The notes under the pieces: model-generated
Databases searched by the model: none
Told to the model about the DNA's origin: nothing
The model's input: the letters and a program-made list of their open reading frames with translations, nothing else
Shown here: positions 15,746 through 26,158 of the stretch, piece by piece
Numbering within the stretch: the first letter of the stretch is position 1
Layout: each line of letters starts with the position of its first letter
Position numbers and translations under genes: made by a program
Assembly (NCBI GenBank): GCA_016214565.1
Contig: JACROE010000002.1
Span: 600,007 to 664,006 of the forward strand
Length of the DNA: 64,000 bases
Origin: Candidatus Kerfeldbacteria bacterium
Lineage (GTDB): Bacteria; Patescibacteriota; Patescibacteriia; UBA10025; JAHIVO01
Direction: 5' to 3'

Positions 15746-18622
15746 ATGCCTGCTCGTACCAAGAAAGCCATTGCCAAGACCCCCTCGACTCAACCGGTTA
15801 TCTCGATTCGCGGCGCGCGGGTACACAATCTCAAGAACATCTCTCTGGACATTCCCCGGGACAAATTAGTGGTGATTACCGGTATTTCCGGTTCAGGAAA
15901 ATCATCGCTGGCTTTTGATACCATTTACGCCGAAGGACAGCGCCGCTACGTCGAATCATTGTCCGCCTACGCGCGCCAATTCCTCGGTCTGATGGACAAA
16001 CCTGATGTGGATCAGATCGACGGTTTATCACCCGCCATTTCTATTGATCAGAAATCGACTTCGCATAATCCTCGCTCGACCGTTGGCACGGTGACTGAGA
16101 TTTATGATTACCTTCGTTTGCTTTTTGCCCGCGTCGGTACTCCACACTGTCCGCAGTGTGGCCGGATTGTTTCCAAACAAACCATTGAGCAGATCACTGA
16201 TCAGGTGTTGTCCCTGTCGCAGGGCACCCAATTCATGATTATGGCGCCGGTTATTCGCAGTCAAAAAGGGGAACACAAGAAAGTGGTGAGCGAAGTACGC
16301 AAAGCCGGTTATGTTCGTATTCGGATTGACGGGGATCTGTATCCGATTGAGGAAGCGGAAGACATGACATTAGACAAGCAGAAGAAGCACGATCTGGAAG
16401 TGGTGGTAGACCGGCTCACCAATGACAAATCTCTTGAGCAGCAGCGCTTGCGTGAGTCACTCGAAGCCGCGCTCGATTTGGGTGACGGCTTGGTTATCAT
16501 TCATGACGCGGACAAAAAAGTTGATCACTTGTATTCACAGCATTTTGCTTGTCCGCATTGTCATATTAATCTCCCGCCCATTGAACCGCGTAATTTTTCT
16601 TTTAATAATCCACACGGCGCCTGCCCTGACTGTACGGGCTTGGGTACTCGACTTGAGATTGATCCGGAAATGGTCATCCCCAATGACCGCCTGACCATCG
16701 CCGAAGGTGCTATCCGCCCCTGGGCACGCACCACAGCCAATCAGGCCTGGTATCTCCGGTTCCTGGAGAAGGTGGCGCTGGCGAATGGTTTTTCTCTGGA
16801 TGTACCCGTGAATACATTGACGAAAAAACAGCTGGACATGATTCTCTACGGAACGGGAACGCAGGAGTACACCATGGATTATTCCAGTGATCGGTTTGAA
16901 GGTGAGTTTACTAAGAATTTCGAAGGGGTGATTCCCAATCTGATGCGCCGGTACAAAGAAACTCAATCTGATTATATCCGCTTGGAGATTGAAAAATTCA
17001 TGCGTGTGTTGCCCTGTCCCACTTGTCTGGGTAAACGACTGAAGCCAGAAGCGCTCGCGGTATTAATTGATAAGAAATCAATTGCCGACATCAGCGCTAT
17101 GACCGTCGAGCATGCCCGCGATTTCTTCGCCACATTGGCCTTTGCCAGTGAACAGCACAAGACGATTGCCCGGCAGATCCTCAAAGAGATTTCCGCGCGA
17201 TTGCAATTCCTGAATAATGTGGGTCTCGACTATTTGACGCTGGATCGCGGTGCCTCCACCCTGGCTGGTGGTGAAGCGCAGCGGATCAGACTCGCTACTC
17301 AGATCGGTTCTTCACTGGTGGGAGTCGTCTACATATTAGATGAGCCATCGATTGGCCTCCATCAGCGCGATAATGAAAAATTGATAGAAACGCTGATTAC
17401 CCTGAAAGAGCTTGGTAACACCGTGATTGTCGTTGAGCATGATGAAGGCACCATTCTTGCTTCAGATTATGTGGTAGATATTGGTCCCGGTGCGGGAGAA
17501 CATGGCGGGCATGTAGTAGCCGCTGGTACGCCGCAGGAAATCATGAAGGATAAGAATTCATTGACCGGTCAATATATCTCTGGCCGATTATCCATCCCGG
17601 CACCCAAAGAATACCGCAAGGGCAATGGTAAATATCTCACGATCAAAGGTGCGTCTGAATTCAACCTCAAAAATGTTGATGCGAAATTCCCTCTCGGGAA
17701 ATTCATCTGTATCACTGGCGTGTCTGGTTCGGGCAAATCAACGCTGATGACCGACATATTGGCCAAGGCATTAGCACAAAAATTCTACCGTGCCAAAGAA
17801 GTGCCTGGTAAACATGTTGGTCTGGAAGGCACCGAGCATCTCGATAAGGTCATCGTGATTGACCAGTCGCCGATTGGCCGTACTCCGCGCTCCAACCCCG
17901 CCACCTATACGGGCGTCTTTACCTACATCCGTGATCTCTTTTCCCAAGTGCCGGAAGCGCGCATCCGTGGATACTCACCCGGGCGGTTTAGTTTCAATGT
18001 CGTGGGTGGTCGCTGTGAAGCCTGCCAGGGCGATGGCCTGGTGAAGATTGAAATGCAATTTTTACCCGACGTCTACGTGGAATGTGAGGAGTGCAAAGGC
18101 CATCGGTACAATGCCCAAGCCTTGGAGATTCATTACCGCAGCAAGAATATTTCCGACGTGCTTAATATGACGGTGGAAGAGGCGATGTATTTCTTCCAGA
18201 ATCAGCCAGCCATCCATAGCAAAATGAAGACATTGTATGAAGTGGGTCTGGGCTATGTGCACCTGGGGCAATCAGCCACCACGCTCTCGGGCGGTGAAGC
18301 CCAGCGGGTGAAGCTGGCTACCGAATTATCACGTCGAGCCACGGGCAAGACACTCTACATCCTGGATGAGCCAACCACCGGTTTGCACTTCGATGACGTG
18401 AAGCGGCTCTTGAGTGTTTTGAATCAGTTGGTTGATAAGGGAAACACCGTGCTCGTCATTGAACACAATTTGGACATTATCAAATCAGCCGATTGGTTGA
18501 TCGACCTCGGTCCTGAGGGTGGCAGCAAGGGTGGAGAAATTGTGGCTCAAGGTACGCCGCGTGAAGTCGTGAAAGTGGTGCGCAGTTACACCGGCAAATT
18601 TCTCAAACCACTACTGAAATAG
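15746..18622 (+). CDS. uvrA: excinuclease ABC subunit A
   Basis: Two ABC ATPase modules ([20 protein letters not shown]) and zinc-finger Cys clusters; start set at MPARTKK; divergent from uvrC. Confidence 0.95.
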
Positions 18623-18652
18623 GACCTCTTTTCCGATAGTGAAACATCCGTT

Positions 18653-18709
18653 CCTCATTCCGAACTTGTTTCGGAATCTCGGAGATCCTGAAATGAATTC
18701 AGGATGAGG
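18653..18709. ncRNA. structured intergenic element, family 1, copy A (nested double hairpin inside CCTCAT/ATGAGG outer stem)
   Basis: Near-identical copy at 26049-26106 with compensatory stem changes; lies between convergent uvrA and the hydrolase gene. Confidence 0.5.
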
Positions 18710-18710
18710 A

Positions 18711-19421
18711 CTATTGTAGCAGTGGAAACTTAAATATCTCCTCCAGCACCCGATCCGTTTCGCAATCAAGGAGAATCTCATGTCCAGAGCGCTCCAGCCA
18801 AACGAGTTCTTTGTCGGCACTCGGAATAGTGTCATAGATATGCCGAGCCCCTGATGGTGCGGCGACTTTATCGTTATGTGAATGGATGATGCGCACGGGC
18901 TGGGTGACTTTTTCCAGGACACTGTCGAAGTGTTGAGTGCGGAGCCAGAAGTGTCGAAATGCAGTCGAAGGGAACCAGGCATAGCCCTGGTCATTTTTGG
19001 CATAGGCGAAGGAGCTGAATTTAGCGATGCTGGGATTGGGCACGCGCGGAATGACGCGGCTGACCACGCGGGTGTAGCGCGCCAGACGAGAGTAGAAGTG
19101 GAGGCAGGAGGACAAGAGTACCAGCCCTAAAATTTGTTTCGGGTATTTTGCAGCTAGTTCCAGTGCCAGGAGCGCTCCCATGGAGAGGGCAATGATGAGT
19201 ATTGGCCGAGTTTTGGGCTGGAGATACTGCAGGGCTTGCTCCACATCGTACTGCCAGTCTTCCCAGCGAGCATTTACCAAATCACCCGGCGTGGTGCCGT
19301 GGCCGGCCAGGATGGGGTAGTGCCATTCGATGCCGCGCTTGTCCAATTCAGGAATCACCGCTTCCAGGCTGGAGCGGTGCGAGGTGAAACCGTGGATAAG
19401 CAGTACGGCGGGTTTGGGCAT
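18711..19421 (-). CDS. alpha/beta-fold hydrolase (esterase/lipase-like)
   Basis: LLIHGFTS, nucleophile elbow ALSMGA, C-terminal His region. Confidence 0.7.
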   Translation of the reverse strand: MPKPAVLLIHGFTSHRSSLEAVIPELDKRGIEWHYPILAGHGTTPGDLVNARWEDWQYDVEQALQYLQPKTRPILIIALSMGALLALELAAKYPKQILGLVLLSSCLHFYSRLARYTRVVSRVIPRVPNPSIAKFSSFAYAKNDQGYAWFPSTAFRHFWLRTQHFDSVLEKVTQPVRIIHSHNDKVAAPSGARHIYDTIPSADKELVWLERSGHEILLDCETDRVLEEIFKFPLLQ

Positions 19422-25239: not shown

Positions 25240-25378
25240 TCGGACAACCCTTTCGAAAAGTGTTTTCCGACACCTTTCGCAAAAGGTTGATTCGCTCGGT
25301 CTGGGACCCACAAGACCCGTGACCTCGCGAAACTTCATTCTATGCTAAGCTCGGCATGCTCCAGAGATAATAGGAAAA

Positions 25379-25408
25379 CCCCCGGATGGAAACAGACGGG
25401 GGTTTTTG
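25379..25408 (+). terminator. rho-independent terminator (module CCGGATGGAAACAGACGGGGGTTTTTGGTT), copy 1
   Basis: GC stem plus T5 directly after groEL; second copy at 26006-26040. Confidence 0.6.
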
Positions 25409-25439
25409 GTTTATTATTCCTTTGGTATAATCTGATGGT

Positions 25440-25976
25440 ATGACTGTCATCTATCCTATTGAATGGGAGATACCCGCCGGAACTCTTGCGAGCTGGATTG
25501 GCTGGGCGAGAAGTAGGCCATCGGTAATTGCATTGTTAGTTGCAGTAGTTTTTTTTGCGCTCATCATTTTTTTACCAGATACGTGGGGTTTTGGGACAAT
25601 ACTAATCGTCTTTATTTTTTTATTACTTGGCCGAATGTGGCGTCATCCTACTTGGCTACCGATGCGTCGATATCGGATTGACGAAAAGGGTATAATGGTT
25701 CGTGAGGGGGCTCGTGAAAAAATATTCGCATGGCAAGACTGTAAAGATTACCATCTGAGGGATGCTCCGGAAGATAATGAATTGTTAATGATCGGAGTGG
25801 TGGATAAGTCAGAGAAACTTGGCAAGCTCATAGTCGTGCGGTCTGAAAAGTCATTGGATGTTATCGGAACAAGTCACGCTTTTGTGCTGCAGACAAATAC
25901 AACCATCGAAAGTGATGTAATCGAGACCATTGCTTCTCGACTGCCCAAGTCGCCATTGGAGGCCGCGGAGGGATGA
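25440..25976 (+). CDS. hypothetical membrane protein
   Basis: 178 aa, two N-terminal TM helices; followed by terminator copy 2. Confidence 0.45.
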   Translation: MTVIYPIEWEIPAGTLASWIGWARSRPSVIALLVAVVFFALIIFLPDTWGFGTILIVFIFLLLGRMWRHPTWLPMRRYRIDEKGIMVREGAREKIFAWQDCKDYHLRDAPEDNELLMIGVVDKSEKLGKLIVVRSEKSLDVIGTSHAFVLQTNTTIESDVIETIASRLPKSPLEAAEG

Positions 25977-26005
25977 TCACGGGGTGACAAGTTTATAGTA
26001 TAAGA

Positions 26006-26040
26006 CCCGCCGGATGGAAACAGACGGGGGTTTTTGGTTA
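26006..26040 (+). terminator. rho-independent terminator module, copy 2
   Basis: Same 30-nt module as 25379-25408. Confidence 0.6.
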
Positions 26041-26048
26041 TTAACTGC

Positions 26049-26106
26049 CCTCATGCCGAACTGGTTTCGGCATCTCAAGAGATCCTGAAATTAATTCAGG
26101 ATGAGG
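26049..26106. ncRNA. structured intergenic element, family 1, copy B
   Basis: Same nested double hairpin as 18653-18709, with paired compensatory changes (ATTCCGAA/TTCGGAAT to ATGCCGAA/TTCGGCAT). Confidence 0.5.
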
Positions 26107-26158
26107 GAATTGAGATGGGTTTTGGTTTTATCCAATTCGCGCTATACTATAGACAGAT

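Follow-up and report, generated by a model that had tools for sequence, protein, structure and literature searches.

Two structured intergenic elements of a Candidatus Kerfeldbacteria genome are probable REPIN-like doublets of CGTC-tagged palindromic repeats

The closest described counterparts of the elements reported here are the CGTC-tagged REPs (repetitive extragenic palindromes), a superfamily of palindromic repeats that the text of a 2013 survey (Di Nocera, De Gregorio and Rocco 2013, BMC Genomics 14:522, PMC3733652) describes as carrying a 4-nt tag (CGTC, TGTC or CCTC), an 8–9 bp stem that starts AT, with complementary A and T at the first and second positions, a loop of 4–5 nt belonging to a few major sequence types, and a 3-nt tail that is mostly CCA. 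According to that text, head-head dimers with the tags outside predominate, most dimers of CGTC-2 are heterodimers, and the repeats sit mainly between convergent and same-direction ORFs near their 3' ends; families comprise tens to thousands of units per genome, and the survey reports no associated transposase and lists the repeats from five phyla, CPR not being among them (PMC3733652). In the later literature citing this work we found no mobilising enzyme or transposase, and our literature search found no report of CGTC-type REPs in CPR/Patescibacteria. The survey's text also places Neisseria dRS3 and Rickettsia RPE-4 and RPE-6 in the CGTC superfamily (PMC3733652). A further comparison is offered by the REPINs (Bertels and Rainey 2011, PMC3116915), which are intergenic, hairpin-capable inverted doublets of REPs that behave as non-autonomous repeats and which, in their classical form, consist of GTAG-type REPs together with a cognate RAYT gene flanked by them.

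The DNA analysed here (the window) is a 64,000-nt stretch of Candidatus Kerfeldbacteria (Patescibacteriota) that makes up ~6% of a ~1.1-Mb genome. Its housekeeping genes include those for RNase J, PPDK and GroES/EL as well as uvrC, uvrA, dnaG, rpoD and bipA, and the closest matches to its GroEL all come from Patescibacteria. The window contains two near-identical elements, at 18653–18709 (copy 1) and 26049–26106 (copy 2), both of which had been picked out in a first-pass annotation and were confirmed from the sequence. Copy 1 reads CCTC ATTCCGAA CTTGT TTCGGAAT CTC G GAG ATCCTGAA ATGAA TTCAGGAT GAGG, and copy 2 reads CCTC ATGCCGAA CTGGT TTCGGCAT CTC AA GAG ATCCTGAA ATTAA TTCAGGAT GAGG. Each element is an inverted pair of 28-nt units: reverse-complementing the right half gives the format of the left half, in which the tag CCTC (4 nt) is followed by an 8-bp stem that starts with AT and encloses a 5-nt loop, and then by the tail CTC (3 nt). 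In both elements the tags point outward (head-head) and the partner units lie 1–2 nt apart; the partners differ in the stem (KCCGAA vs CCTGAA), which makes each doublet a heterodimer. The units and doublets are listed below, with bit scores from a unit covariance model, R1.

18653–18680, plus strand: REP unit 1a, tag CCTC, stem ATTCCGAA/TTCGGAAT, loop CTTGT, tail CTC; R1 score 45.7 bits, to be read in the light of this unit having belonged to the training alignment of R1
18682–18709, minus strand: REP unit 1b, inverted, tag CCTC, stem ATCCTGAA/TTCAGGAT, loop TTCAT, tail CTC; R1 score 42.4 bits
18653–18709, no strand assigned: copy 1, head-head heterodimer with a 1-nt spacer, in the 88-nt spacer between the convergent uvrA and alpha/beta hydrolase genes
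26049–26076, plus strand: REP unit 2a, tag CCTC, stem ATGCCGAA/TTCGGCAT, loop CTGGT, tail CTC; R1 score 41.3 bits
26079–26106, minus strand: REP unit 2b, inverted, tag CCTC, stem ATCCTGAA/TTCAGGAT, loop TTAAT, tail CTC; R1 score 39.8 bits
26049–26106, no strand assigned: copy 2, head-head heterodimer with a 2-nt spacer, from sequence and folding

Within the window, each 28-nt half matched at these two places only when up to 3 mismatches were allowed (0 matches in shuffled sequence), and a covariance-model search of the kind proposed in the first-pass annotation, run with R1 and with filters off, returned the same four units in 64 kb and no others. Similarity between copy 1 and copy 2 ends at the element borders, and their flanks differ. 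Inside the elements, the pairing-preserving change that had been described in hairpin 1 is real, T18659:A18675 in copy 1 standing against G26055:C26071 in copy 2 as a genuine paired difference; the remaining differences are one base per loop and the length of the spacer (1 vs 2 nt).

Compared to the CGTC-tagged REPs described in the survey's text (PMC3733652), the window units have the same unpaired 4-nt tag, CCTC in all four, which is a documented variant of CGTC. Their stems (ATTCCGAA, ATGCCGAA and, twice, ATCCTGAA) are all perfect, 8 bp long and AT-starting, with A-T and T-A as the first pairs; their loops (CTTGT, CTGGT, TTCAT and TTAAT) are all of 5 nt; and an unpaired 3-nt tail is present in 4 of 4 units. 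The published repeats are likewise matched in the head-head heterodimer arrangement with the tags outside, and in the placement by the 3' ends of convergent or same-direction genes; as with them, no associated transposase gene was found, here among the 40 window ORFs scanned. The hairpin ATCCTGAA-CTTGT-TTCAGGAT is identical to that of CGTC..CCA units of Sphingomonas (L060). Assignment to family 2 follows the paper's text description of that family, an 8-bp stem with a 5-nt loop (PMC3733652). The window elements differ from the published repeats in their tail, which reads CTC whereas the commonest published tail is CCA, and in their spacer of 1–2 nt, which resembles that of Wolbachia CGTC-4, whereas most spacers given in the survey's text measure 20–100 bp (PMC3733652). 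Their host, a CPR/Patescibacteria MAG, belongs to a lineage outside the five phyla listed there in 2013, and only two dimers were seen in the 64 kb covered.

Both copies are inverted doublets, as REPINs are, but their tag is of the CCTC/CGTC type, their spacer is much shorter, and a scan of 40 window ORFs revealed no RAYT. Nor was a transposase domain found in these ORFs, the cut-off being E ≤ 0.01 for the first ten of them and E ≤ 1e-10 for the remaining thirty. Relative to dRS3 and the RPEs, the window elements have other stems, loops and genomic behaviour: dRS3 occurs in clusters and is a phage integration site and the RPEs insert inside genes, whereas the window copies are intergenic doublets.

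We consider it highly probable that the two elements are REPIN-like head-head heterodimers of CGTC-class REPs (CCTC tag, family-2 format), that is, miniature DNA repeats gained and lost at the DNA level. Family membership, wide distribution, presence or absence at orthologous sites and nested insertions are shown by the data. Being of a known palindromic repeat kind, the elements count as ordinary repeat DNA and not as a new RNA gene, and they add a new host lineage to a known REP class. A miniature mobile structured repeat had been among the options offered in the first-pass annotation, and this option fits the REP format, the wide distribution and the turnover. In the mechanism we propose, such a doublet would be a miniature palindromic repeat of non-coding DNA that comes and goes at the DNA level, takes up further insertions there and settles in intergenic spacers just beyond stop codons. 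The hairpin, the 4-nt tag and the loop would persist because a putative enzyme copies or recognises them, probably in ssDNA, and the heterodimer form would avoid a long perfect palindrome.

The distribution of the unit beyond this host was followed in genomes, metagenomes and viral contigs. In representative genomes, the pattern ATCCTGAA-N5-TTCAGGAT-GAGG was found at at least 120 loci in many phyla, several Patescibacteria included. Among the matches listed, part were chance matches in coding sequence (ILxxIQDE type) and most were the window's hairpin with the loop ACAAG, ACGAG or TCAAG; these units occurred in Alphaproteobacteria, Bacteroidota, Patescibacteria, Spirochaetes and others, often with a second unit as partner, and they formed arrays, singletons and varied dimer arrangements across phyla. 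A scan of metagenomes for the dimer junction gave 42 loci, and 23 of the 39 non-coding matches were full head-head heterodimers, with the format [Y]GTC-AT(T/G)CCGAA-loop-TTCGG(A/C)AT-CTC-n1-3-GAG-ATCCTGAA-loop-TTCAGGAT-GAC[R]. The scan of viral contigs, in which any base was allowed at the first two tag positions, gave 84 units at 56 loci. TGTC was the tag of 38 units, CGTC of 29 and AGTC of 11, TGTC or CGTC thus accounting for 67 of 84, and CTC was the commonest tail (43 of 84). The commonest loops were CTTGT, CTCGT, TTTAT, CTTGA and TTCAT; the window loops CTTGT, TTCAT and CTGGT recurred in this sample, TTAAT being absent from it. The conservation of the tag, the loop and the tail across phyla is real.

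The viral loci (L171–L226, from IMG/VR) sometimes held several units per contig, as in L191, with 7 units in 13 kb. Units in viral contigs could reflect phage carriage, colonisation of prophages or host DNA contaminating the viral set. In annotated phage and plasmid collections we found no matches beyond those on two Treponema saccharophilum megaplasmids, NZ_AP025289.1 and NZ_AP025290.1, which have 7 and 5 doublet-like places, respectively, none of them annotated. A REP unit was also embedded in a repeated segment of at least 300 nt in the Rhodospirillales MAG JAVJTE01 (L031 1–300 and 2529–2828, and L032; 94% identical, three copies seen). The REP-flanked segment of L031 was considered as a transposase carrier and was dropped, its ORFs having no Pfam match.

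Among close relatives, both sites vary. The site of copy 2 holds no element in L122 and L124 (GroEL 91–92%), L125 (88%) or L169 (86%). The uvrA–hydrolase spacer that houses copy 1 is without any unit in L122 (91%), and in L170 (GroEL 86%) it contains one single unit right behind uvrA. In L168 (GroEL 98%), the copy 2 doublet is present at the orthologous site with the same flanking duplication and has been invaded twice, by an extra 23-nt hairpin-like insert in the loop of hairpin 1 and by an extra 35-nt G+C-rich insert inside hairpin 2 that interrupts the stem. The empty copy 2 site reads GGGGGTTTTTGGTT|TTATCCAATTCG, and the filled site of the window reads GGGTTTTTGGTT + ATTAACTGC + doublet + GAATTGAGAT + GGGTTTTGGTT + TTATCC. 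Alignments of the orthologous spacers delimit the following block.

26040–26127, no strand assigned: block found in the window and in L168 and missing in L122/L124, made up of ATTAACTGC, the dimer, GAATTGAGAT and GGGTTTTGGTT

Loss rather than gain could account for absence at these orthologous sites. The relatives hold units elsewhere in other arrangements, such as tags-inside pairs and, in L125, a head-head pair spaced by 2 nt; overall, there are ~7 units in ~130 kb of GroEL-anchored loci of this lineage.

Copy 2 is bracketed by an 11–12 nt duplication (GGGTTTTTGGTT at 26028–26039 and GGGTTTTGGTT at 26117–26127), with 9–10 nt of non-repeat sequence on each side between the doublet and the duplication. 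To judge from its sequence, the duplication looks like a target-site duplication. A target-site duplication as a general feature of the dimers was rejected, as the longest word shared between flanks had a mean length of 5.2 nt in 22 dimers and of 4.7 nt in the mismatched controls, and no duplication of the 11–12 nt type was found around the 21 doublets other than copy 2. A weaker flanking pair lies around copy 1 (AGTGAAAC at 18638–18645 and AGTGGAAAC at 18721–18729).

L168:2183–2298 and window 26049–26106 form an orthologous filled/empty pair for nested insertion. No repeats of the L168 inserts were found among the sequences collected for this analysis. Hairpin-forming inserts of 20–45 nt recur in REP hairpins, mostly in the loops and in metagenome copies too, as in L131, L133, L137, L140, L141, L143, L145, L152 and L166; examples are CCCTCCGATTCGGAGGG and TCCCGACTGAGTCGGGA.

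The alternative that survives best, although we regard it as unlikely, is that the elements are cis-acting RNA elements of 3' UTRs, selected for RNA folding and serving either as stabilisers against 3' exonucleases or as barriers or terminators between genes. The genomic setting of copy 1 speaks for such a role. It starts 30 nt past the stop codon of uvrA (plus strand, stop at 18620–18622), ends 1 nt from the stop codon of the convergent alpha/beta-hydrolase gene (minus strand, stop at 18711–18713) and takes up most of the 88-nt spacer, in which it is the sole strong structure; the terminator scan called nothing at either element or elsewhere in this spacer. Position in general is also favourable: the survey's text puts these repeats mostly in convergent and same-direction spacers near 3' ends (PMC3733652), and our own count with a crude ORF finder (6 convergent, 13 same-direction and 3 divergent dimer spacers) agrees with the published pattern. 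By the same ORF finder, however, the doublets lay in both orientations relative to transcription about evenly (6 vs 5), which shows no sign of a strand-specific function. The close relatives that lack the element in the same spacers and the 35-nt stem insertion in the 98% strain likewise argue against a conserved RNA function.

Copy 2 is placed less favourably for an RNA role. The first-pass annotation was correct in locating both copies at gene ends. Copy 1 lies in a convergent spacer and copy 2 between two same-strand genes, the upstream one being a 178-aa ORF. This ORF is followed, directly upstream of copy 2 and outside the repeat, by a separate hairpin.

26006–26039, plus strand: terminator-like hairpin with a T-run (CCCGCC..GACGGGGG TTTTTGGTT), repeat D1, conserved in relatives

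This hairpin was missed by the terminator scan because its loop exceeds 8 nt. A TATACT −10-like box lies at 26143–26148, ~37 nt downstream of copy 2 and before the next gene. Copy 2 is therefore probably poorly transcribed, being situated between the terminator-like hairpin and the −10-like box, in what would be a little-transcribed gap if these two signals work. As for termination, the elements resemble intrinsic terminators in being stable hairpins directly past a stop codon, but the base of their stem is A/T-rich and a T-run is missing behind both copies, whichever strand is read, and copy 2 adjoins a hairpin that does have one. An intrinsic terminator, which the first-pass annotation had covered under a termination module, is unlikely in view of the missing T-run and the lack of a scan call.

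Predicted folding energies of −23 to −29 kcal/mol, with z-scores of −2.9 to −4.4, favour a structured RNA, as does the covariation of hairpin pairs. The fold proposed earlier, an outer stem CCTCAT/ATGAGG around two hairpins, holds in part. An outer pairing exists but comprises CCTC/GAGG alone (4 bp, extended to 5 bp in copy 2); the last two bases of CCTCAT, AT, are already part of the hairpin stems. The two-hairpin form is the predicted minimum for the minus strand of copy 2, but on the plus strand the minimum-energy fold is a single long imperfect hairpin, relative to which the two-hairpin form is 0–3 kcal/mol less stable. We aligned 20 distinct dimers from the window, genome loci and metagenome loci. 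Two hairpins plus tags were paired in 99.5% of cells, in a set from which dimers with more than one stem mismatch had been filtered out, to the advantage of the two-hairpin structure, and whose search pattern already prescribed half of each hairpin. For the long single hairpin the value was 85.7%, with 2 positions that never pair and with position 7 pairing in the T form only. From this difference, the unit hairpins are taken to be the conserved structure. Changes on both sides were seen at pairs 7/23 (UA 11, GC 9), 11/19 and 12/18, and the tags covaried between partners (TGTC/GACA, CGTC/GACG and CCTC/GAGG).

This covariation had been read in the first-pass annotation as indicating selection on RNA structure, which as it stands is unsupported. 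Hairpin 1 had the T:A form in 11 and the G:C form in 9 of the 20 distinct dimers, and both forms are widespread; the two window copies are therefore two circulating subfamily forms rather than the product of a local compensatory event. A change from T:A to G:C is a double transversion without a wobble intermediate, and no G:U occurred at the covarying pair 7/23 in the 20 dimers, which counts against the reading as a cis-acting RNA element. Upkeep of the hairpin at the DNA level (as ssDNA or an enzyme-recognised cruciform, or by palindrome-templated correction) gives an identical covariation pattern, and subfamily amplification or palindrome-templated DNA correction fits the data at least as well as RNA-level compensation. 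Since palindromic DNA repeats show paired hairpin changes, such changes should not be read as RNA covariation.

Identity as a REP doublet is compatible with a secondary function of the transcript. Copy 1, which would be transcribed at the 3' ends of two convergent genes, is predicted to fold stably as RNA (~−23 kcal/mol), and by analogy with E. coli REPs its hairpin could act secondarily as a 3'-end barrier or stabiliser. Such a role is possible for copy 1 and unlikely for copy 2.

Less probable again is that the elements are DNA sites for a host or phage protein that are not themselves mobile, such as a recombination or integration target or a site to which a nucleoid or topoisomerase protein binds. 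The survey's text equates Neisseria dRS3 with CGTC-1 (PMC3733652), the conservation of tag and loop across phyla suggests sequence-specific protein recognition, and the nested loop insertions show that hairpins are targets for other DNA. For a fixed binding site, however, one would expect conservation at orthologous positions, which is not seen, and no recombinase gene was found near the elements among the window ORFs scanned. The DNA-site reading overlaps the REP doublet reading and does not exclude it.

No family of structured RNA emerged from Rfam for the elements: at the gathering threshold, the whole window yielded two tRNAs only, and permissive local scans returned chance-level matches to hairpin models (at most 22 bits, vs thresholds of at least 37), so that the scan suggested in the first-pass annotation gave no match for the elements. 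A literature search on the hairpin sequence and on the peptides of its spurious ORFs returned nothing relevant. A hammerhead-like reading of GATGAGG was rejected on inspection, the CUGAUGA core being absent. An independently transcribed small non-coding RNA gene, another option of the first-pass annotation, is very improbable even though the elements are compact, structured and conserved between two loci, as no promoter-like site was found at copy 1 or on the plus strand beside copy 2, as there is no terminator after either copy, no flank common to both and no Rfam match, and as arrays, singletons and varied dimers across phyla are the behaviour of a repeat and not of a gene.

The apparent structured RNA is thereby mainly explained away as REP-type repeat DNA. 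What is new is the wider range of CGTC-class REPs, which takes in the streamlined genomes of Patescibacteria as well as viral contigs and many metagenomes, and in which the tag, the loop and the tail are conserved from phylum to phylum. Annotators who search intergenic regions for RNAs should first mask doublets of this type. The presence or absence of doublets between close strains, together with the hairpin modules nested in loops, provides a tractable handle on how orphan repeats move. A bolder extension, which we hold only tentatively and consider doubtful, is that CGTC-class doublets are active hairpin-DNA mobile elements in this ~1.1-Mb CPR genome, moved by a putative cross-phyla enzyme that is perhaps phage-borne, with loops as preferred landing sites for small hairpin modules; if this were true, the window and L168 would constitute a clean before/after pair.

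Several observations concern the region around copy 2 itself. A ~100-nt block after the groEL stop codon (25240–25340) is conserved with L169 (GroEL 86%) and is replaced by unrelated sequence in L122/L124 (91–92%); the groEL 3' region is therefore a mosaic. Further downstream, a 45-nt terminator-like direct repeat, 87% identical between its copies at 25367–25411 and 25995–26039, brackets the 178-aa ORF (25440–25976), which has no Pfam match and is absent from L168 (98%) and from L122/L124. In L125, a 198-aa ORF lies in the slot after groEL that matches the slot of the window's 178-aa ORF. This slot looks like a variable cassette position, or like the site of a deletion between the 45-nt repeats. 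A TATAAT or TATACT box is found 10–35 nt before the start codons of the region's genes (25423–25431 and 26143–26148 in the window, with equivalents in L125 and L122), and these boxes come directly after the terminator-like hairpin of the upstream gene. The arrangement suggests that very short leaders and compact terminator–promoter modules may be usual in this lineage.
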